From the IMG/VR virus record IMGVR_UViG_2778261087_000010: DNA of 10,082 bases; one strand, given 5' to 3'. How positions within the stretch are numbered: the first letter of the stretch is position 1; the number at the start of each line of letters is the position of its first letter. Source of the stretch: a virus. Its lineage: Duplodnaviria; Heunggongvirae; Uroviricota; Caudoviricetes. Both the position numbers and the translations under genes were made by a program. The notes under the pieces are model-generated. The model was not told where the DNA came from, did not search any database, and saw nothing but the letters and a program-made list of their open reading frames with translations. This document shows, one piece after another, positions 1-10,082 of the stretch.

Positions 1-432
1 TCACTCTCCTTTGATGCGAATGTTTACAGCCTGACAAGCCTCTTCGAGAACCCAGTCAACAGCGTCTTTCCATGCTCCGGTTTCGGCTGGCGGATTCTCA
101 CTCTTTACCAGTTCATAGAAACGCACTGCGTTTACCAGTCCTCTTGGTACTGCTGGCGCTGGCGGCTCTCGATACATAGGGATAACACGTCGCGGGTCCG
201 CGTATTTATCTGGCGGACACTGAAATATCTCACCGAAACCATACTGCTTGACATCACGCAGTTCCTCATCATCAGTCCATGCAACAGGTTTCGCTTCCAG
301 CGATGTGAGTGCGATTTTCAGTGCGATTAACATATTGTGATCGTTTTCATCAAGGCCAAACGGGATGTCTTCACGACACGATTCAAGGTCTGCAATTTTG
401 CGTTGTAACCATTTTTTGGGGATAGTTGCCAT
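1..432 (-). CDS. Hypothetical protein (143 aa), last gene of the parM-parR gene train
   Basis: Complete ORF: ATG at 430-432 (minus), stop TGA at 1-3. Strong SD-like AGGAGAGGAG 5' of the start in the 19-bp gap after the parR-like stop. No motif I recognise. Confidence 0.55.
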   Translation of the reverse strand: MATIPKKWLQRKIADLESCREDIPFGLDENDHNMLIALKIALTSLEAKPVAWTDDEELRDVKQYGFGEIFQCPPDKYADPRRVIPMYREPPAPAVPRGLVNAVRFYELVKSENPPAETGAWKDAVDWVLEEACQAVNIRIKGE

Positions 433-451
433 AGATGCTCCTCTCCTGTTT

Positions 452-766
452 TCACTCTGGGAAAAATGACTGAATGTTCTTTCTTATCTCGCTAGTGCTG
501 TGATTGCTTCCGGTGGCAGGTGCGCTGGCATATTTACTCTGAATATTATTCTTGGCTGGCGCAGCTCCTTCTTCCGGCCATTCGGCCAACCAATAGGCAA
601 ATGCAGGATCGCGTTTTATGAGTGCCAGCCCGGCCAGAAAGGCCGCGCGTTGCGCGCGGCTGCGTTCAGAGGCTGGCAGGCTGTCGAGGTAATTACACGC
701 CTCCCGTTCACTATTGACGGCGACTGGCTTCAGATAGAAACTTATCCGTCTGGTTGGTGTCGTCAT
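452..766 (-). CDS. parR: ParR/StbB-like ribbon-helix-helix centromere-binding protein (104 aa)
   Basis: Internal ATG at 764-766 preceded by AGGAG; the parM stop TAA (771-773) lies inside this RBS. Translation (RRISFYLKP...EREACNYLDSLPASERSRAQRAAFLAGLALIKRDP) matches, from memory, plasmid R1 ParR (RTIAFKLNP...LDSIPQGERSRLNRAALTAGLALYRQDP). The 149-aa ORF in the track (452-901) would overlap parM by 130 nt and is rejected. Confidence 0.75.
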   Translation of the reverse strand: MTTPTRRISFYLKPVAVNSEREACNYLDSLPASERSRAQRAAFLAGLALIKRDPAFAYWLAEWPEEGAAPAKNNIQSKYASAPATGSNHSTSEIRKNIQSFFPE

Positions 767-770
767 TGGT

Positions 771-1730
771 TTACTCCTTGTCCATTGCGTACAGCCCATT
801 AACCAGAGCAAACTGTGGCACCCCGTCCGCGATGAAAGTCGCATTAACTCCGCAGGCTTCGCGGATAGCGGGTGCCACAATCTCCGCCCCACCACCGACA
901 ACCATCACCCGCCCGTAACCCGAAAAACCCGCCAGCGCGCGGATCACGCGTTGTTTCAGTGTTTCTTCCTTTTCACGAATAACCGCCATCAGGCTGGCGT
1001 AATGCGCGTCATTGTGGATGTGCTGGCGCAGCCAGGCTTCATCATGGCGATGTTCGATAATGGTATTGGCGATGTGGTGACTGGTGCGCATACCGTTAGT
1101 GGCCATCACCGACAGTACGGCATCGGCCATCAGAGAAACGCCTACGTGTGGATCGCAAAACACCTGGCTGATACCTGCCAGTTGCCCCTGAACCTTTGCC
1201 ACATCCAGCGTGGTTCCGCCCAAATCCACAATCAGCAGGGATTCAAACGGACTCATGTCAGCCAGTGCCTTAAAGCCAGCCGGAATGGATTCAGGCATAA
1301 CCCGTACGTTACGGATAGTGAATGCTTCGCCGTTCTGGTACTCCACCGGGCGCATAACGTTCGCTTTTTTGCGGTTGATGTTGGTCATGTCCGGCTGTGC
1401 GTTTGTGTCGAAATACTCGCTCAGTGGCAGGGTGACAACCACATCCACCTCCTGTGGCGTGATGCCTGATTTGACCAGCGCGTGATGAATGGCAATGACA
1501 TTCACATCGCTGTACTGGTATTGCGTGTCGGTCGTCTGGACAAAGCGATCGCTGACCGGATCAAAACCATAGCGCACGCCATCAAGCATGTAGTTTGCGG
1601 GCTGCGTGCCACCGAACGGCGCAGACCATTCCGACTTGAAGCTGTTCGGGCTGATGGCGTTGCGGCGTTCGCCGTTCTCAGTCCATGCCAGCTTGATGTT
1701 GGTGGAGCCGTCATCGATACAAATTTTCAT
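771..1730 (-). CDS. parM: ParM/StbA actin-like plasmid segregation ATPase (319 aa)
   Basis: N-terminus MKICIDDGSTNIKLAW plus blocks ISPNSFK, QYSDVNV.AIHHAL, RPVEYQNGEAFTIRNVRVMPESIPAG, LLIVDLGGTTLD and MVVGGGAE align by eye with R1 ParM. RBS AAGGAAAAG upstream of the ATG at 1728-1730. Confidence 0.9.
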   Translation of the reverse strand: MKICIDDGSTNIKLAWTENGERRNAISPNSFKSEWSAPFGGTQPANYMLDGVRYGFDPVSDRFVQTTDTQYQYSDVNVIAIHHALVKSGITPQEVDVVVTLPLSEYFDTNAQPDMTNINRKKANVMRPVEYQNGEAFTIRNVRVMPESIPAGFKALADMSPFESLLIVDLGGTTLDVAKVQGQLAGISQVFCDPHVGVSLMADAVLSVMATNGMRTSHHIANTIIEHRHDEAWLRQHIHNDAHYASLMAVIREKEETLKQRVIRALAGFSGYGRVMVVGGGAEIVAPAIREACGVNATFIADGVPQFALVNGLYAMDKE

Positions 1731-1759
1731 GTCGCTTTTCCTTATGTTGATTAATTAAT

Positions 1760-1870
1760 CGTTTACGGGATTCTGAAATCCCGTTTTTGCCTGTTTTATG
1801 CGCGCTTCATATATCGCGGCGCGTTTTTTGCTCATTTACGGGATTTGTGAATCCCGTTTCTGTCTGTTTT
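1760..1870. promoter_or_regulatory. Candidate parC-like centromere / parM promoter region with two direct copies of a hairpin repeat
   Basis: ACGGGATT-ctga-AATCCCGT at 1765-1784 and ACGGGATT-tgtg-AATCCCGT at 1838-1857, each in the context TTTACGGGATT...AATCCCGTTT followed by a T-run, 73 bp apart. The first lies between the gpA stop and parM start; the second overlaps the last ~20 codons of gpA. Confidence 0.4.
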
Positions 1871-4647
1871 TTGTTTCCACTGGTCAGGCCACCCCGCAGC
1901 AGGTCTGCTTTGCGGCGGGCGCGTTCAGTGGTTTCACTGATTCTCTGTGCGTGCTCTGCGTCGCGGATGGCGCGCAGCATGTCAGAAAGCACGGTAACGG
2001 GTGTTTTCATGGTGTTCTGGTCCTGCTGAAGTGTGGATGCCAGGCGTGCGGCGGCTTCGGGGTCTGATGCCCCCAGCTGTTCCAGATAGCTGGCGACCGG
2101 GTTATGGCGGATCTCCGTGCTGCTTACGCCGTGGTTACGGCTCAGGCGCTGCCAGAGCTGCGTGATCCGGCTGTCCGGGCGGGTATCCGGTTTGCGTACA
2201 ATTTCAAATCCCTGCGGTGCAATGATGCTGCCGTCAACGTACAGACTGCCGCCCCGTAACAGGTGCTGCATCTGCTGTTCACCAATATGCAGGCCGAGAG
2301 ATTCAGCAGACTCCCGCCATTCTTTAGCGAGTAATTCGTGGTTATCAGGCAAAGGCCGCTGCTGTTTGCGGCTCTGTGTCCAGCTCTGCATTTCATCACT
2401 GCTGTTTTTTGCCTGTTTGTCACGAAGCGAACGCATCAGCGCCCGGCGTTCGTGCCGTTTCAGTGAGCGCATCCATTCGTTCACTTCAACGCCGTCAGGG
2501 AGCTGCGGCCACGGTGCTGGCCGTTCTTCCGGCTGTTCTGTCCCGTTGTTGTCCGTTTCCTGTACACGGGGACAGTTATTGCCACGAGTCCAAGGGGCGG
2601 CAGGGCCGCCCTGAAGGTCAAAACCATTTTCGTGGGCGCTGCCTTCCTGTTCCGGTTTACGTCTTACCAGCTTCCAGTTATCCGGGTGCGTGCACACACG
2701 GGAGGATTCCCCGATGAGTGGTGACCAGATCCCGTAAATCTGTACACTCTGTTCGCCGTAATCGTTCAGCTCATCGGCGAGGTCGTAGGCGGTGCGAATC
2801 AGGTAGTCTTTGCGTGGAACAAGTACGCCGCCCTGTTTCTCTATGTAGGTGGCAAAACATCCGGCATCAGCGGCAGCGAGTACCGCATCCATTGCGTCAT
2901 CCTTCAGCCGTTGCGGGCCTTCCGGGTTGCGTGCCATCTGGCTGGCAAGGCGGCGGAGTTCACGCCACACCTGACGGGAGGGGATGCCAAAGAACTGGAA
3001 CTGGCGGACCCGGTGAAGGCGTGCCCAACCGATGGCGCGCTCCACGCTCTCGGCCATTGATTTTCCGGTTTCGTGGTCAACGCGTGGTTTGCCCGTTTTC
3101 GGGTCGATGCCATCCACGGCGCGGCTGTCCAGGTTTTTCCCGATGTAGGTCGCGATATAGCTGGTTGGTGTGCCTTTTGAGCCGTCGACATACTCCACTT
3201 TAAAGCGCGGAGTAATATCATTGCCCAGCTCGTGGCGGTCTTCCTGAATGGCAATATCGCGGGTGATGGCCACGATGCTGTCGATTTCTTCCGGATGAGC
3301 AAAGACCATCATATGCCAGTGCACGGTGCCGTCATGGTGAGGCTCCACCGTGCGGATGCCATACCAGCGCAGGCCGTCGCGGTTCAGTTTTTTGCGGACC
3401 GCCGCAAAAAACGTGTTAACCAGGTAATCGCTGGAGTCGCGCATGGTGGCCCCGTTCCATTTGGGGTTCGGATGACCGTTCTCCGTTGTTGCGTGGTATT
3501 TTGACGGGCAGGTGACAGTCAGAAACACCGCTCTGTCGCCACGGGCTTCGGCCAGAAGTTCCAGTCCCTTCATGGTGGCCATCATTTCTGCCTTACGGTG
3601 AACCGGGTTACTTACTCCCGCGTAATACACTGTCTCGAGATCAATCGTGAACCCGTCTTCGTTTTCCAGCATGAAACTTTTCAGGAAATCGCGTGTTTTC
3701 TCGCGCTGTGCGCGAAACTCGCTTAACGCGTCCTGGCTCAGATAGGGCGATGTTTTTCTGGAAACCAGACAGGCGGCGCGGAGTTGTTCTTCTCTCCACT
3801 CGCAACGTAACAGCCACAGTTTGCGTTTCCACCATTCCGCACAGGTCAGGCGAAGGATTGCGCCCGGCAGCAGCTCCGTGTCCGGTTCGTTCCTCCGGTC
3901 TTTATCTGTTGTCAGTGCGTCATAATGTGGAGGCATGATGTGCAGGTGTAACGCCATGCGGGCCAGCATCTGATACGCCTTCAGCGTTACATCCATGGTC
4001 AGTTCGCCATCGGTCGCGCCAAAGCCATCGCAGAGTTTTTCGAAGGTGCTGCTGAACATCGCCGCCGTCATGGTGGCCAGCGTCTGTATCTGGTGTTTGT
4101 TGAGCTGCGGCAGGTAAAGCAAATCGTCCAGGCGTTCGCGTCCGGCAAGGGAGCGATAACCCGGTGTCAGCCAGCGTCCGTCAGTGCGATCCAGACGTTC
4201 GAATATTTTGCGCAGGGTTCCGCGTGCATAGCGTTCCGCCTGCCAGCTCTTTTTGCCTTTCCGGCGATCAGCTTCCTGTTTTTTGCGCAGGAAGGAGAGG
4301 TGGCGACTCAGAGGTTCTCGCAGATAAACGGGAAGCGCCTTCAGTGTGGCAAAGGCACGGGCTACCGGGTCTTGTTCTGTTGCCCGGCGCTTACTGATGA
4401 TGCTCTGTGCCAGCTTTTCACGCTGTCCGGCTTCCTCAAGGGATGCCATGAGTTTTTTACCCATGGCGGATTGTGCGAAAAAGGCTTCTTCCTTCGCTTC
4501 CTGTTCTTCCTGTGCCCTTTTGTCCGCCTCAAGGTAGTAACGGATGGCGCGTTGCAGGTCGGTTTCAGTTTCCTGCCTGCGCTCCGTAAATCTGGCCGGA
4601 TCAATAGCTGGTCGTGGTTCATTCCAGCTCCATGCAAACGCACTCAT
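1807..4647 (-). CDS. Rolling-circle replication initiator, phage P2 gene A (GpA) family HUH endonuclease (946 aa)
   Basis: HUH motif in GTVHWHMMVFAHPE and paired catalytic tyrosines in TPTSYIATYIGKN (Y-x3-Y), the arrangement of the P2 A / phiX174 gpA family. Start taken as ATG 4645-4647, which overlaps the upstream ORF stop as ATGA; the GTG at 4672-4674 used by the track has no SD. Confidence 0.88.
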   Translation of the reverse strand: MSAFAWSWNEPRPAIDPARFTERRQETETDLQRAIRYYLEADKRAQEEQEAKEEAFFAQSAMGKKLMASLEEAGQREKLAQSIISKRRATEQDPVARAFATLKALPVYLREPLSRHLSFLRKKQEADRRKGKKSWQAERYARGTLRKIFERLDRTDGRWLTPGYRSLAGRERLDDLLYLPQLNKHQIQTLATMTAAMFSSTFEKLCDGFGATDGELTMDVTLKAYQMLARMALHLHIMPPHYDALTTDKDRRNEPDTELLPGAILRLTCAEWWKRKLWLLRCEWREEQLRAACLVSRKTSPYLSQDALSEFRAQREKTRDFLKSFMLENEDGFTIDLETVYYAGVSNPVHRKAEMMATMKGLELLAEARGDRAVFLTVTCPSKYHATTENGHPNPKWNGATMRDSSDYLVNTFFAAVRKKLNRDGLRWYGIRTVEPHHDGTVHWHMMVFAHPEEIDSIVAITRDIAIQEDRHELGNDITPRFKVEYVDGSKGTPTSYIATYIGKNLDSRAVDGIDPKTGKPRVDHETGKSMAESVERAIGWARLHRVRQFQFFGIPSRQVWRELRRLASQMARNPEGPQRLKDDAMDAVLAAADAGCFATYIEKQGGVLVPRKDYLIRTAYDLADELNDYGEQSVQIYGIWSPLIGESSRVCTHPDNWKLVRRKPEQEGSAHENGFDLQGGPAAPWTRGNNCPRVQETDNNGTEQPEERPAPWPQLPDGVEVNEWMRSLKRHERRALMRSLRDKQAKNSSDEMQSWTQSRKQQRPLPDNHELLAKEWRESAESLGLHIGEQQMQHLLRGGSLYVDGSIIAPQGFEIVRKPDTRPDSRITQLWQRLSRNHGVSSTEIRHNPVASYLEQLGASDPEAAARLASTLQQDQNTMKTPVTVLSDMLRAIRDAEHAQRISETTERARRKADLLRGGLTSGNKKQTETGFTNPVNEQKTRRDI

Positions 4648-5033
4648 GGCTGGTATCCCGTCACGCGCTGCCACTCCTGCGAGAAGAGGGCGGAAAGGCG
4701 GTTAAATTCAGCGGTGTATTCACTCAGCGAGGCACACCCGCCAGCAGTGCGATGCGCCAGCATTGCTGCAAATACGGAGGCCGGGGAGTCGTAATACGCC
4801 AGCAGTGATTCGCCGTGCGGTGTCAGGCAGTGCAACGCCAGTCCGTGTGGTGTGAAGTCCACGCGGTAGCAGTCGTCTACTGTGAAATAAAGGGTGTCTG
4901 CATTCTCCGGTTTTGTGGTGCGTGCTCTGTTGTCACGACCACGGATGTAGAGATCAAATAACCCCTGAAGAACGGGAGCCAGACGGGTGTCCTGTGTGCG
5001 CACCCATCTTGTGAAGTCATGAGTGTCAATCAT
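4644..5033 (-). CDS. Hypothetical protein (129 aa), translationally coupled to the replication initiator
   Basis: ORF with ATG at 5031-5033 and modest AGAGAA RBS; stop TGA 4644-4646 overlaps the gpA start. No recognised motif. Confidence 0.55.
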   Translation of the reverse strand: MIDTHDFTRWVRTQDTRLAPVLQGLFDLYIRGRDNRARTTKPENADTLYFTVDDCYRVDFTPHGLALHCLTPHGESLLAYYDSPASVFAAMLAHRTAGGCASLSEYTAEFNRLSALFSQEWQRVTGYQP

Positions 5034-5105
5034 GCTGCAATTCTCTTTACTACAGATGTGCGAAGGCCTCCCGCCGCAAGGTGCAGGAAAGGCCCGGAAC
5101 AGGAA

Positions 5106-5336
5106 TTAATGGAGTTTGTTTTGCTGCTGGATGAGCTGCTGAAGCTCGCGCAGATCATCCGCCAGATAGCTGAAAACAGCGGATGAATAGAGGTTTGAAA
5201 GTTCGCAGCTACGCTCATGCAGCATATTGATGTGCATGATTTTAGCGACGCGGAATGCGCGGGAAAGTCTGCGGTTGATTTCAGTCTGGATGTGACGACA
5301 CGCAGCGTATGCGCGGTGCTGTTTGCGGTTTGCCAT
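5106..5336 (-). CDS. Hypothetical small basic protein (76 aa)
   Basis: ATG 5334-5336 with good RBS AAAGAGG about 8 nt upstream; first gene after the terminator and the 19-bp palindrome. No zinc-finger Cys pattern, so not called Ogr-like. Confidence 0.5.
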   Translation of the reverse strand: MANRKQHRAYAACRHIQTEINRRLSRAFRVAKIMHINMLHERSCELSNLYSSAVFSYLADDLRELQQLIQQQNKLH

Positions 5337-5354
5337 GGTGTGGCCTCTTTGGTT

Positions 5355-5373
5355 GTAAGTTTTGAAAACTTAC
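5355..5373. promoter_or_regulatory. Perfect 19-bp palindrome (9-1-9), candidate operator upstream of the 5106-5336 gene
   Basis: GTAAGTTTT-G-AAAACTTAC read directly from the sequence, about 20 nt upstream of the RBS of the 76-aa ORF. It does not fit the LexA box pattern CTGT-N8-ACAG. Confidence 0.4.
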
Positions 5374-5514
5374 CATCCAGAGGTTCCAAGCTCGGGGTGG
5401 TGAGACGTACAGGGTTGGAACTACCGGCAACCAAAGAACCCGGCCCGACCGAAGTCGGCCCCATACGCCCCACCATAATTCGTGTGCGAAAAAGACGTGG
5501 CGATACGGTACGCA

Positions 5515-5536
5515 CAAAAAAACCGCTGGCGCGGTT
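5515..5536 (-). terminator. Candidate rho-independent terminator closing the upstream small-gene block
   Basis: Minus strand reads AACCGC-GCCA-GCGGTT followed by TTTTT (6-bp stem, 4-nt loop, T-run), about 120 nt after the stop of the 5659-5958 gene. Confidence 0.5.
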
Positions 5537-5658
5537 GTGCGCTTTGGTTGTCAGCGGGGTTCCAATCCCGGCACCCGTTTTATGAGGTGCAGCGGAAATG
5601 TAACCTGACTGATTGCGGCATGGCAAGCGGTTTTTTTGTGTGTGCATGCTCTGGTTTC

Positions 5659-5958
5659 TTACTGGTTCAGAAAAAAATCAAAAACCTTGTCAATGCGTTG
5701 CAGCAGCTCTTGCTGTATTGCTTCCGGCGTTTCCGGTTCACCAGGTGCCCCCAGCGTTGCGCAGAAATCAGCGATTTCATGATGGAGCGTCAGGCGAATG
5801 GCAGGAGCCGTGGTTCTGGCGTGCTCCAGCTCATCCAGCAATGCCAGCACAGCAGACGGCGAGAGCATTGCGCGAAATGCCAGTAATTTTTGAGGCGTTG
5901 CCATTCGTTGCAGGGCAAATGCCAGTTCGCGTAGCTTCTGGTGGTTGATGGTGCTCAT
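5659..5958 (-). CDS. Hypothetical protein (99 aa)
   Basis: ORF with ATG 5956-5958 overlapping the upstream stop (ATGA); stop TAA 5659-5661; followed by the terminator. No recognised motif. Confidence 0.55.
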   Translation of the reverse strand: MSTINHQKLRELAFALQRMATPQKLLAFRAMLSPSAVLALLDELEHARTTAPAIRLTLHHEIADFCATLGAPGEPETPEAIQQELLQRIDKVFDFFLNQ

Positions 5959-6221
5959 GTTCTGGCTTCCTTCAGTAGCTGGTTAAACATGTGAGTAAGT
6001 GGATTGCTACACCCGAACGGCATCGGGTTTACGTGGTAAGAAGCCTGGCCTCCAGTTTTGCGAGCGCGACCACCTGTGCTGCGGTTTGTTCTGATGACTA
6101 AGCCGCCGCGCCAAAGTTGGCGTAACTCAGCATTAATGGCTGTGGTTGGAGTATTCAGTGCTGCGGCGATCTCTCCGCCGCTACACCCCGGATGAGTAGC
6201 GATGTAGTCCAGAATGGTCAT
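5955..6221 (-). CDS. Hypothetical protein (88 aa), possible winged-helix DNA-binding protein
   Basis: ATG 6219-6221 overlaps the upstream stop (ATGA). N-terminal MTILDYIATHPGCSGGEIAAALNTPTTAINAELRQLWRGGLV looks like a helix-turn-helix plus wing; the functional call is weak. Confidence 0.5.
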   Translation of the reverse strand: MTILDYIATHPGCSGGEIAAALNTPTTAINAELRQLWRGGLVIRTNRSTGGRARKTGGQASYHVNPMPFGCSNPLTHMFNQLLKEART

Positions 6222-6421
6222 CTGCGTGGCTCCTGTACTTGTCGGATAAGATTCACCCGCGCCACGTTGGTGGCGCAGAAATAAGTGCCGTCAGTGAGGT
6301 AGATGTGGTGTGCATCCTTTTCCGAACGATGTTTGTCGATAGTGGTAATCAGGCGTTCGTCGACCTCGTATTCGCGCCCTCTGGAGGTAAAGCGAACGAC
6401 GGAAAAATGCTTAATTGCCAT
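6218..6421 (-). CDS. Hypothetical protein (67 aa)
   Basis: ATG 6419-6421 with RBS AAGGGGG 5 nt upstream; stop overlaps the next start (ATGA). Confidence 0.5.
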   Translation of the reverse strand: MAIKHFSVVRFTSRGREYEVDERLITTIDKHRSEKDAHHIYLTDGTYFCATNVARVNLIRQVQEPRR

Positions 6422-6444
6422 TGCGCCCCCTTTGTCCAGTACCC

Positions 6445-6861
6445 CTATGCGTTAAATACGGCACGTTGCGCGTCATCAATGAATACAGCTTGAGAGCGTT
6501 CTATCAGGCGGAGATTTGTCAGAAGCTCTGACTCTTTTGTGTGGTAAGGCGTTATCAGGTATTTGCCGTGCAGTTCGGCAATAATGGTGTATTGCAGCAT
6601 CATTGCTGAACCAAGAATATAAATGCAGCGTCCAATGCTGGACGGATTCATGGCTGCAACTGTTGACTGTGTTTTAAGAGTGTCGATTTCTTTGCTCTGT
6701 TCCTCAATAATTTTGGCTGCGTCAGCGGTGATTTTTGCAATGGTCAGTGCGTGAAGTGCTGCCATATGTTGGCTACGCTTCACGGCATCTTTAGCCATTT
6801 CATCTTCCGCTTCTGATATTTTTTTTAATGTGTCGATAATGCCTTCTTCTTTTGCGTTCAT
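6445..6861 (-). CDS. Hypothetical protein (138 aa), AT-rich cargo gene
   Basis: ATG 6859-6861 with GGAG about 8 nt upstream. Sampled 60-nt windows are ~38% GC here versus ~63% inside gpA. Predicted helical N-terminus and a hydrophobic stretch IGRCIYILGSAMMLQYTIIAEL. Confidence 0.55.
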   Translation of the reverse strand: MNAKEEGIIDTLKKISEAEDEMAKDAVKRSQHMAALHALTIAKITADAAKIIEEQSKEIDTLKTQSTVAAMNPSSIGRCIYILGSAMMLQYTIIAELHGKYLITPYHTKESELLTNLRLIERSQAVFIDDAQRAVFNA

Positions 6862-6953
6862 TTTATATCTCCGTTATTTACATGTGCGAATACCTCCGCG
6901 AATGCGGATAGTTTTCAGGTTTTCGGGTTTAATCTGGTGTTTTGTTTAAGCTG

Positions 6954-7067
6954 TTATTCGTCAGTGAAAAAGCGTTCAATCTTTTTTACTGAATGAATAA
7001 TTCGCATAATCCCAATGGCGCAGGCCACCGAAATAATCAGAACAAGCCATGAGATAAATATACTCAT
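6954..7067 (-). CDS. Small single-helix membrane peptide (37 aa), not in the supplied ORF track
   Basis: Hand translation of the minus strand gives MSIFISWLVLIISVACAIGIMRIIHSVKKIERFFTDE, stop TAA 6954-6956. Its ATG 7065-7067 overlaps the stop TGA 7064-7066 of the upstream gene (ATGA). Hydrophobic core with a charged tail. Confidence 0.4.
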   Translation of the reverse strand: MSIFISWLVLIISVACAIGIMRIIHSVKKIERFFTDE

Positions 7068-7306
7068 GCGATATTCCCCAGCTTATACGGTTCAATATGT
7101 TCCCCGCATTCTGCGGCACAGATCAGCTCGGAAAGTTCGTTAAGTGCATCCAGATCATCAGCGTAAAAAGCGACGTCATACAAACTCCGGATTGCCCTGG
7201 TCAATGAGTCACGGGCTGCACGTTCAGCATGAGCGCCTGATGCACTTAAGCGAAAATAAAATCGTTCAAGTGCTTTGTTAATGAGAGTTTTATATTCTTT
7301 GCCCAT
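7064..7306 (-). CDS. Hypothetical protein (80 aa)
   Basis: Internal ATG 7304-7306 (MGKEYKTLINKALERF...) with AAGGG upstream; the longer track ORF from 7357 would overlap the preceding gene. Confidence 0.5.
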   Translation of the reverse strand: MGKEYKTLINKALERFYFRLSASGAHAERAARDSLTRAIRSLYDVAFYADDLDALNELSELICAAECGEHIEPYKLGNIA

Positions 7307-7317
7307 CGCAGCGCCCT

Positions 7318-7605
7318 TTAATCTGCTTTCTGAATTCCAGCTTCTGAATCCATACAAATAATTTCGATATATGGTTCATCGCCATTAACCTGACGTGCCT
7401 TTTCAGCTTCGCTAATGATTTCTCGTACGGTCTGGTACGGAAGTTCCACAAGCAGTCGCGTGCCGTTCAGATAAACGTAAGTGGCTTCGTCGGCTCCGTT
7501 TTTACCCGCCGGAGTCACTCCGTCAATAGCGGATGCACGTAATAACAGTTCACCGCGAAAATCAATAAAACGGATAAATACACCTTGTGCATGGTCTTTG
7601 GTCAT
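7318..7605 (-). CDS. Hypothetical protein (95 aa)
   Basis: Internal ATG 7603-7605 (MTKDHAQGVFIRF...) preceded by AGGTG at 5-nt spacing; the track start at 7719 would overlap the upstream gene by ~100 nt. Confidence 0.5.
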   Translation of the reverse strand: MTKDHAQGVFIRFIDFRGELLLRASAIDGVTPAGKNGADEATYVYLNGTRLLVELPYQTVREIISEAEKARQVNGDEPYIEIICMDSEAGIQKAD

Positions 7606-7615
7606 AAAGCACCTG

Positions 7616-7954
7616 TTATAAATCAGCCTGTTTAATAAAACTTTGCCCGCGAAGCAGACGATCAACCGTGCGAAGTGCTTCGTATAATGTGAAATCCTGC
7701 CCGAACTGATTGTCGCCACAGCTCAATGCAAAAATGCGGTTTCCGGTAAACGGATTGCGTGGGCATTTGTGGATCACGATTCCAGCTTTCTCAATCAGCC
7801 AGGCGTGCTCGCCGATTTGTTTTACTGGGTAGCCATCCGGCGTTGCGTGTGTATCACTCAGGCTGTAGCGGATGTTGCTGCGTGATGCACTGGTAGTGAA
7901 ACGGTTAGCGTGGCGTTCTGTTCCGGTACGAAAATTACGGCGTTGCTTCAGCAT
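7616..7954 (-). CDS. Hypothetical protein (112 aa)
   Basis: ATG 7952-7954, GAGGTG upstream, 14-bp gap after the Cox-like gene stop; second gene of the leftward operon. Confidence 0.55.
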   Translation of the reverse strand: MLKQRRNFRTGTERHANRFTTSASRSNIRYSLSDTHATPDGYPVKQIGEHAWLIEKAGIVIHKCPRNPFTGNRIFALSCGDNQFGQDFTLYEALRTVDRLLRGQSFIKQADL

Positions 7955-7968
7955 AAAATGACACCTCG

Positions 7969-8247
7969 TTATTTTGTCATCTGCACGTATTTTTCTGCGC
8001 TCCTGATTGTTTTCAGGAAAAGAGCGAAGAGATTTACTGTGCGTCTTGAGTTCTTTTCATCCTGGTTGATGGGAATTGAACCTCTGTCAGCCTGTCTTTT
8101 CACTGTGTTAACAGCTTGGTTGGTACGTTTTGCGTAATCTTTCAGGCTTTCTTCAAGTACTGGTAACCCATGCTCATCGCGGTAGGGATAGAACGCTGCT
8201 AACCGCTCAAAGTCTGCCTGTTCGTGTGTGTTCAGGACTTTTGCCAT
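7969..8247 (-). CDS. Cox/Apl/excisionase-like small DNA-binding protein (92 aa), first gene of the leftward early operon
   Basis: Divergent from the repressor-like gene across the operator region, as cox/apl are in P2/186. Segment YAKRTNQAVNTVKRQADRGSIPI...RRTVNLFA resembles Xis/AlpA-type winged helices. Called on position and motif only. Confidence 0.5.
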   Translation of the reverse strand: MAKVLNTHEQADFERLAAFYPYRDEHGLPVLEESLKDYAKRTNQAVNTVKRQADRGSIPINQDEKNSRRTVNLFALFLKTIRSAEKYVQMTK

Positions 8248-8285
8248 GTGTGATAACCTGCGCTATCTGTGGTTGTTTGTGACTT

Positions 8286-8339
8286 GGTGTACTTATAAGT
8301 ACACCTTGTGCGCAAGCTTAGTGTACTTATAGGAACACT
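8286..8339. promoter_or_regulatory. Genetic-switch operator region: perfect 20-bp palindrome plus a degenerate second copy
   Basis: GGTGTACTTATAAGTACACC at 8286-8305; GTGTACTTATAGGAACAC within 8320-8339 shares the left half-site and overlaps the RBS of the repressor-like gene. Centres are about 34 bp apart, between the divergent starts at 8247 and 8344. Confidence 0.6.
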
Positions 8340-8343
8340 GTCA

Positions 8344-8652
8344 ATGCTTATCGGTGAAAAAATTAGAGTGATTCGTGAATCAGAGGATTTAACGCGCGAA
8401 GAATTTTGCGGCCTGATTGATGTGCCTATCGGCACTTTGCGTCGTTATGAAACGGGGCGGATTGAAAACATAGGGGGCGAAGTGCTTATCAAGATTGTTA
8501 ATCACCCTCGCTTTTTTAAGTACATGAATTGGCTTATGACGGGAAAAACAAATGAGGCTGCTGGGCAGATCAGTCCGTCTCTCTCCCCTGATGGGCCAAA
8601 AAGCACATCGCCTTCTCAAAAACCCCGCAAGACTGGCACACAGCCCGGCTAA
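8344..8652 (+). CDS. HTH (XRE-type) immunity repressor-like protein (102 aa), P2 C / 186 cI position
   Basis: ATG 8344-8346 with AGGAA 8 nt upstream. N-terminal helix-turn-helix signature EKIRVIRESEDLTREEFCGLIDVPIGTLRRYETG. Immediately upstream of and co-oriented with the integrase. The track GTG start at 8308 lies inside the operators and is rejected. Confidence 0.75.
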   Translation: MLIGEKIRVIRESEDLTREEFCGLIDVPIGTLRRYETGRIENIGGEVLIKIVNHPRFFKYMNWLMTGKTNEAAGQISPSLSPDGPKSTSPSQKPRKTGTQPG

Positions 8653-8701
8653 TCATGGAGCGCTGGGGGCATGGTGGTCTTGTAACGCTGGGGTTTCACG
8701 A

Positions 8702-9676
8702 ATGAGCATAAAATCAATTCCGGGAGGGTATCTTCTTGACATGCGCCCTGAGGGGCGTAAAGGCAAACGCATTCGCAAAAAATTTAAAACGAAATCGGAT
8801 GCAGTTTTATATGAGCGGTGGGTGCTGGCGCAACAGCATAACAATGAGTGGAAAGGAGACTCTATTGATCGCCGTCCTCTGTCAGTGCTTATTGACTTGT
8901 GGTGGAAATACCACGGCCAGCTAATGAAGTCAGGGCATAACACGCGCCTTAAATTGCTGCGCTTGAGTGAGGCAATGGATGACCCGTGCGTGCATAAACT
9001 TAATACAACAATGCTCACCGAGCTACGTGTGTCCAGGATAGAGCAGGGGATACAGCCCAGCACCATAAATCGAGAGATTGGGGCGTTAAGCGCGATGTTT
9101 ACCGCACTCATCTCATCCGGCCATTTTCTTAACGATAACCCCGTTCAAGGCCTTAAAGGAATGAAGGTTAACGAGCGCGAAATGGGATATCTGAGTAAGT
9201 CTGAATGTGTTCAGTTGCTGGATGCACTGGCTGAAAATCCCGATGAACGGCTGGCTGTCGAAATCCTTCTGTCGACCGGGGCGCGATGGGGCGAGGTAGC
9301 GGCACTGGAGCAGCGCCGTGTTCTTCATTGTCGAATCACTTTTTCAAAAACGAAGAACAGCAAAAACCGTACCGTTCCTATTTCTGAAAGCCTGTTTGAA
9401 AAGATCAAAATACGGGGCGGGAAACTGGTGTTTCCGACGCTGGATTATCCATTGGTTCGCGATGTCATCAAAACGGTCGCACCTGATGTTCCTGACGGCC
9501 AGGCTGTTCATGCGCTGCGCCACACCTTCGCCAGTCATTTCATGATGAACGGCGGCAATATTCTGACGCTCCAGAAAATTCTGGGGCACGCAAAGATTCA
9601 GACAACGATGATTTATGCCCATCTTGCGCCGGATTACTTGCAGGATGCGGTGAGATTTAATCCTATTGCTGGGTAA
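8702..9676 (+). CDS. int: Tyrosine recombinase / phage integrase (324 aa)
   Basis: C-terminal catalytic signature HALRHTFASHFMMNGGNILTLQKILGHAKIQTTMIYAHL (R...H-x-x-R...Y) and core-binding-like N-terminus; size near P2 Int. Start at ATG 8702 (MSIKSIPGGYLLD); the longer track ORF from 8552 overlaps the repressor gene. Confidence 0.9.
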   Translation: MSIKSIPGGYLLDMRPEGRKGKRIRKKFKTKSDAVLYERWVLAQQHNNEWKGDSIDRRPLSVLIDLWWKYHGQLMKSGHNTRLKLLRLSEAMDDPCVHKLNTTMLTELRVSRIEQGIQPSTINREIGALSAMFTALISSGHFLNDNPVQGLKGMKVNEREMGYLSKSECVQLLDALAENPDERLAVEILLSTGARWGEVAALEQRRVLHCRITFSKTKNSKNRTVPISESLFEKIKIRGGKLVFPTLDYPLVRDVIKTVAPDVPDGQAVHALRHTFASHFMMNGGNILTLQKILGHAKIQTTMIYAHLAPDYLQDAVRFNPIAG

Positions 9677-9686
9677 GGAGGATGTT

Positions 9687-10082
9687 GTGGAAAAAACAGT
9701 TAATAGCGATTTGCATTTAGGTCAGTACTGGAGAATAGACATTGTATGCGATCCAGAACTTCGAGATGAGGTTGAGCAATATTTTTCTCTACACGATGTT
9801 GGTTTTAGCAAAATTGAAGTTTTTTCCGTCGAAAATCCATATAAACTTGCTCTATTCTTTGATTTCGCGAAGAAGGGTGTGGAGGTTGCAAAAGCCATTA
9901 TGGGACTCTTAGACCGAAATGATATTGAAATAACGATGTATCGTGCTACGGACAGTAGCCCGCAGTCTGTAAAAAGCATCAAATTGCGTAAGTCTGAAGA
10001 CGTAGAGAAATGTAAAGATTTGCTTAGTACGTGTGTTGCAATTGGCGTTCAACGAAATAAGGAAAAAGAGGGGAGTGAATGA
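9687..10082 (+). CDS. Hypothetical protein (131 aa), AT-rich gene coupled to the integrase 3' end
   Basis: Integrase stop TAA 9674-9676 is followed directly by GGAGGA (9677-9682) and an in-frame GTG at 9687. Sampled window ~32% GC. Stop TGA is at the last three bases of the window. The start could instead be the TTG at 9666. Confidence 0.5.
   Translation: MEKTVNSDLHLGQYWRIDIVCDPELRDEVEQYFSLHDVGFSKIEVFSVENPYKLALFFDFAKKGVEVAKAIMGLLDRNDIEITMYRATDSSPQSVKSIKLRKSEDVEKCKDLLSTCVAIGVQRNKEKEGSE

Follow-up and report, generated by a model that had tools for sequence, protein, structure and literature searches.

The DNA analysed here (10,082 nucleotides, the window) is the right-hand end (10 kb) of a P2-type prophage that is inserted between ihfA and btuC, within the terminator of ihfA, and near-identical matches to it occur in the chromosomes of 297 out of 5426 complete E. 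coli genomes. A Cox-like gene on its minus strand (7969-8247) is divergent from the plus-strand gene for a P2 C-type immunity repressor (8344..8652), which matches Pfam HTH_3 / HTH_31 and is a RefSeq helix-turn-helix protein in the homologous prophage. Then come, likewise on the plus strand, the gene for a tyrosine integrase of 324 aa (8702..9676, stop TAA at 9674-9676; Pfam Int_N 2e-28, Phage_integrase 2e-19; phrog_1 integrase) and a gene for a hypothetical protein (9687..10082), here called gene X and its product protein X. Repressor and integrase genes probably form the first and second cistrons, respectively, of a lysogenic operon.

In the homologous prophage of E. coli O104:H4 2011C-3493 (RefSeq), GPO scaffold, terminase and portal genes, two hypothetical genes, a ParR-like gene and ParM precede the gpA replication endonuclease, small early genes and a Cox-like DNA-binding protein; thereafter, on the opposite strand, follow the HTH repressor, the integrase, a 131-aa hypothetical protein and btuC, and at the far end ogr and a Hok/Gef gene adjoin ihfA. 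The P2-type assignment is based on the P2 order of gpA, portal, terminase, GPO scaffold, capsid and tail genes and ogr in this prophage (RefSeq), on a tyrosine integrase that lies 3' of a C-type repressor and divergent from a Cox-like gene (Pfam and gene order) and on arm-binding direct repeats (tgTGGaCa) that flank the att core on both sides. The window aligns to the O104:H4 prophage with identities of 96% (1-6426), 92% (6871-8280) and 99% (8530-10082), and between these flanks two short mosaic gaps (6427-6870 and 8281-8529) are unalignable. Since the second gap takes in the operator region together with the N-terminal part of the C repressor, the immunity type may differ, with a mosaic switch region.

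P2 carries its lysogenic-conversion genes old, tin and fun(Z) - accessory and prophage-expressed - in exchangeable slots, namely the gpA-portal slot and the tail region. Where P2 has old/tin, the window has a ParM/ParR-like module instead: on its minus strand, within 1-1730, lie three genes (at 1-432, 452-766 and 771-1730), among them those for a ParM actin-like ATPase and a ParR-like 'plasmid partitioning/stability' protein as well as a 143-aa hypothetical gene (annotation of the homologous locus), and a plasmid-type segregation module in the gpA-portal (tin/old) hotspot is odd cargo for an integrating prophage. The O104:H4 copy shows extra cargo and damage (locus L002, 7208-10560, 16706-17278 and 23502-25382), comprising an IS5-family insertion, a DUF3800 gene and a gpD-like gene that is truncated; its tail-fibre slot holds a serine O-acetyltransferase, and a 626-aa DUF6645 protein lies between lysis and tail genes.

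Gene X and its product

Gene X begins with GTG at 9687 and runs through 131 sense codons to a TGA (10080-10082) with which the window ends; the window edge thus does not truncate the gene, which is complete. Its Shine-Dalgarno sequence AAGGAGG (9675..9681, plus strand) is read directly from the DNA; it overlaps the integrase stop and leaves a 5-nt spacer to the GTG. A preliminary description of this DNA had rightly recognised an ORF of 131 aa that ends at the final base of the window, but the start it gave (9666) is a TTG, in frame, that lies within the tail of the integrase gene, whereas the start at 9687 is supported by the Shine-Dalgarno sequence, is annotated by RefSeq and corresponds to an ATG at the equivalent position in Salmonella. 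Similarly, the Shine-Dalgarno sequence that it placed immediately after the integrase stop does precede the ORF, whose GTG lies at 9687, yet overlaps the TAA rather than following it. The distance of 10 nt from integrase stop to gene X start is kept in the E. coli and Salmonella homologues, with GTG or ATG as start codon. Although the G+C content of the gene, first given as ~32%, measures 38.9% (GC3 33%), the contrast with the integrase (49.2%) and the remainder of the window (52.5%) is real. Pairwise dN/dS among E. coli and Salmonella homologues of 60-98% identity ranges from 0.08 to 0.32 (0.15-0.32 without the near-identical pair); gene X is therefore a genuine protein-coding gene under purifying selection.

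Protein X (131 aa, 14.9 kDa) is acidic with a pI of 5.3, and reading its sequence reveals no evident signal peptide or membrane segment. Neither Pfam nor NCBIfam holds a match to it, no PADLOC-DB v2 family matches even at E <= 10, and the only PHROGs family matched is phrog_14142, whose HMM covers the protein end to end (residues 1-128 of 128, E = 4e-70) but which has no functional annotation and says nothing on mechanism. A word-indexed search of 5.8 billion proteins returned 11 clusters, all from E. coli or Salmonella, and a profile search run exhaustively over 1.84 billion representatives gave 16 matches, 11 of them convincing. Profile and structure searches, from which the preliminary description had hoped for clues to this protein, thus led only to a family of unknown function and to no significant structural match: a PDB profile search found nothing below E = 0.27, and Foldseek comparison of the protein X model with PDB and BFVD gave nothing at E <= 0.001, with TM-scores below 0.45. 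The AF2 model itself is of moderate confidence (pLDDT 78, pTM 0.72) and shows an alpha/beta protein ordered beta-alpha-beta-beta-alpha-beta-beta-alpha-beta, a beta-alpha-beta sandwich. A resemblance to ACT, PII-like or CutA ferredoxin-like domains would probably be that of a very common fold only; protein X has neither sequence similarity to them nor their family motifs, and carries extra C-terminal elements. Its most conserved segment is IMGLL-NRNDIEI; no catalytic motif is apparent, the model lacks an HTH or winged-helix fold and no HTH Pfam family matches. Literature searches by accession, locus tag and PHROG id found no experiment or expression report on gene X.

Attachment site and prophage boundary

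Alignment of attB from E. coli C, an empty ihfA-btuC site with an intergenic region of 100 bp, with attL and attR gives the att core as GGCCGCTnnGCGGCCTTTTTTCTTT, which is the ihfA intrinsic terminator hairpin. The attachment site that the preliminary description expected downstream of the window is thus located, 107 nt past the gene X stop and with no partner gene before it; btuC starts 190 nt past the same stop in full-length relatives. The 18 bases straight after the gene X stop read TCCACAAAGTGACCACAT. One copy per arm of the motif TCCACN5GWCCACAT is present in each locus examined, directly 3' of the cargo stop on the gene X arm and, on the opposite arm, ~40 bp inward of the core, and none elsewhere in 59 kb or anywhere in the window. 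Read on the complementary strand, this motif consists of two direct repeats of tgTGGaCa, the arm-binding consensus of P2-type integrases (PMC3448106), and gene X sits between the integrase and these predicted arm-binding sites of attP.

Coordinates of the core are 14590-14613 in locus L001 and about 6137-6165 in L002, about 107 nt beyond the window end. After integration, ihfA (at attL) and the proposed C-int-X operon of the phage (at attR) each have a terminator again, and a phage whose integrase is of an IHF-using type inserts right behind ihfA itself. Scans for tRNA genes and Rfam families across the junction and the att region gave nothing above threshold; a sub-threshold Rfam match to STnc540, an enterobacterial sRNA (22.5 bits against a gathering score of 38), lies over the att core and the ihfA-btuC intergenic region (L001 14549-14672).

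All 5426 genomes match the DNA 3' of the ORF, the prophage-free ones only from 107 nt past the gene X stop, and hence the ORF lies inside the prophage. The original view that it belongs to the element rather than to the host flank was well founded: it falls within attL and attR, and in the 159 of 5426 E. coli genomes that have it, it adjoins a phage integrase in every match listed. Nor does it behave as a conserved host gene, being absent from genomes without the prophage. An att site or tRNA gene between integrase and gene X was considered and rejected, as repeat search and tRNA scan found none there. The further suggestion that the ORF opens a module which continues beyond the window had to be abandoned, because in full-length relatives a single gene is followed at once by the arm-binding repeats, 107 nt on by the att core and then by btuC. 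This result fixes where the prophage ends.

An exchangeable cassette slot behind the integrase

Alignments of six cassette types define an exchangeable cassette at 9664..10080 on the plus strand. On the left, homology extends through the integrase codons ...R-F-N-P, up to ...TTTAATCC (window 9663), and on the right it is back at GATCCACAAAG, where the last cargo gene has its stop codon. With the left breakpoint inside the integrase 3' end, the final integrase codons, the stop and the Shine-Dalgarno sequence belong to the cassette. Beyond the right breakpoint, an arm of 106 bp is 95-100% conserved among the six types.

This integrase 3' end is found at the ihfA site in 297 (about 300) of the 5426 complete E. 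coli genomes, 159 of which carry gene X; those without it lose similarity within the last few integrase codons. In its place we find a pair of genes for proteins of 120 and 145 aa (86 genomes), a 166-aa protein with a DUF1640/CCDC90 protein (23 genomes; further genomes have incomplete versions), a pair of 127 and 99 aa (17 genomes) or a 132-aa protein paired with a DUF1640 protein (14 genomes). These counts total about 299 and no empty slot was seen, so that all of about 300 E. coli copies have cargo between att and an integrase of this lineage. Breakpoints are identical in all types and the types are mutually exclusive; the variable content that comparison of related elements might show at this junction, as foreseen in the preliminary description, amounts to at least five unrelated cassettes behind the same integrase. 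The alternative first genes form a Cys-rich family (CxxC...CxxC) of about 130-166 aa, the second genes encode coiled-coil proteins, some DUF1640/CCDC90-like and/or with a C-terminal membrane anchor, and hhalign detects no relation between gene X and any of the alternative cassette genes, whose products have no convincing PADLOC match either.

Whatever the type, the start of the first cargo gene either lies 2-10 nt past the integrase stop or overlaps it, with a GGAG-type motif in or beside the integrase tail. Because it recurs in each cassette, coupling to the integrase appears to be a property of the slot, not of gene X. A slot with base-precise breakpoints and integrase coupling in every type would tie the expression of its cargo to the lysogenic operon. 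Its cassettes are probably swapped by homologous recombination in the conserved flanks, which are the integrase gene on one side and arm, att and host DNA on the other.

Close homologues of gene X (60-98% identity) occur in E. coli and Salmonella, always in the order repressor, integrase, X, btuC, and the carriers include well-studied pathogens, namely O104:H4 outbreak strains, O111 strains and EPEC E2348/69. Distant homologues (30-34% identity, same length) lie at the opposite prophage end beside ogr, where a host gene (fabF-like or raiA) is followed by a terminator, the same arm repeats, a hairpin and X, and then by ogr and gpD on the other strand. If the phage genome is drawn as a circle, X falls between integrase and ogr in either arrangement, with its orientation unchanged, and borders the arm sites on their outer side, to one side of the core or the other. 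In the distant subfamily the homologue is uncoupled from the integrase, so integrase coupling is not intrinsic to gene X function. The O104:H4 prophage has its Hok/Gef toxin gene (L002 6423-6563, minus strand) between the attL arm repeats and ogr, in a mirror-image slot which elsewhere is home to the distant X homologues; from this alternation both attP flanks appear to be cargo slots. A scan of one genome per species gave a single match, a truncated X in Symbiopectobacterium sp. (L007 5780-6252), which follows a hairpin resembling the ihfA terminator (AAAGGCCGCTTTCGCGGCCTTT) and adjoins ogr and gpD amid transposase genes. That copy is probably pseudogenised, and the locus has the look of a P2-like prophage in decay within the genome of a symbiont.

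Expression and possible role of protein X

That gene X is a prophage cargo cassette in the slot between integrase and att we regard as very probable. Its kind of feature is already known: the integrase-att interval of P2-like prophages has been reported as a minor defence hotspot that holds 3% of recognised P2 systems (PMC13586616), and PICI satellites have a comparable slot. That hotspot was delimited through defence systems already recognised (PMC13586616), whereas the cassettes described here, X included, match no known defence family. As with old, tin and fun(Z), we are dealing with an accessory gene of a P2-type prophage in an exchangeable slot, but gene X occupies a different slot, has no sequence similarity to them and its anti-phage activity is putative. 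The family is uncharacterised and structurally uninformative. As this type of feature has been described before, the gain would be incremental unless the function proves unusual.

As for expression, the Pc operon of P2 expresses repressor and integrase (PMC3936717). Between integrase and gene X there is no terminator-like site, no promoter-like site was found on the plus strand 5' of gene X, and the first plus-strand intrinsic terminator past the integrase is the att-core hairpin. Because the Shine-Dalgarno sequence overlaps the integrase stop, no terminator precedes X and the first one downstream is that of the att core, gene X is most likely the third cistron, after C repressor and integrase, of a lysogenic Pc operon, and its translation is probably coupled to that of the integrase. 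Judged by this arrangement, co-expression with the integrase is likely, and protein X would then accompany repressor and integrase, both in lysogens and while lysogeny is being established. Its place inside att suggests that gene X would be packaged in virions, though no sequenced phage isolate carries it: tblastn found no match for either subfamily among INPHARED phages, nor one for X among PLSDB plasmids.

What the protein does is, to our minds, best sought in conflict between phages. Taking the reading as a whole, we lean, with rather more confidence than doubt, towards gene X as a single-gene accessory cassette ('moron') in the integrase-att slot that is co-expressed with the lysogenic operon and may serve the lysogen in phage conflict. 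Protein X would aid the lysogen against other phages as a small soluble binding protein and not as an enzyme, since neither a catalytic motif nor a membrane segment nor a domain for nucleic-acid binding can be detected in it. We think of phage conflict because the integrase-att interval is a reported defence hotspot and because unknown genes at the defence loci of P4 satellites are reported to protect: of eight sets tested, six did so against multiple phages (PMC13586616). An anti-phage role proper (superinfection exclusion or defence), drawn as it is from such analogies, we put forward only tentatively and at somewhat less than an even chance, because neither sequence nor fold supports it directly.

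The coupling to the integrase, together with the fact that both X subfamilies abut P2-type arm repeats, on either side of att, might instead point to an accessory or regulatory factor of site-specific recombination that acts on integrase activity, excision or att occupancy. We consider this very improbable: in about 140 genomes the same integrase is found with unrelated cassettes, which replace X where integrase 3' ends are about 91-98% identical to that of the window and the arm is 95-100% conserved, so that gene X appears dispensable for the integrase and the two are not co-inherited. Moreover, the phage already has a Cox-type directionality factor, the protein X model has no HTH or winged-helix fold, and adjacency to att is equally well explained if the slot merely tolerates cargo. 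A counter-defence or host-takeover protein, used in infection or establishment rather than for the lysogen's protection, for example to inhibit a host enzyme or a protein of host restriction or defence, would fit a product that is small, acidic (pI 5.3), soluble and free of enzymatic motifs - traits typical of inhibitors - and an AT-rich gene that looks horizontally acquired. The location of gene X in the lysogenic rather than an early lytic operon, however, points to expression in lysogens, and no similarity to known viral proteins was found in BFVD; this option, too, strikes us as improbable. Next to no credence is left for host DNA or a chance frame in AT-rich DNA, even if 'hypothetical protein' is the only annotation the ORF has: neither the 5100+ prophage-free E. 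coli genomes nor the empty ihfA-btuC site contains it, and the ORF is enclosed by the att repeats, has homologues of equal length at 30-34% identity and shows dN/dS well below 1 across those at 60-98%, all of which refutes this reading.

A bolder version, in which gene X founds a new single-protein family for anti-phage defence or superinfection exclusion, with a hitherto unseen small alpha/beta fold and expression from the repressor-integrase operon, and in which the alternating two-gene cassettes (a Cys-rich protein with a membrane-anchored coiled-coil DUF1640 protein) are a second new system, is in our estimate unlikely; if it held true, both flanks of the P2 attachment site would be a dedicated and as yet unmined reservoir of immunity genes. 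As all cassettes of the slot are uncharacterised, gene X and the two-gene cassettes make cheap and well-defined candidates for phage-defence screens. The two-gene cassettes, present in about 140 E. coli genomes (for example L005 2582-3529, L004 2585-3260, L015 1683-2479 and L016 1683-2721), are a candidate new system in their own right.
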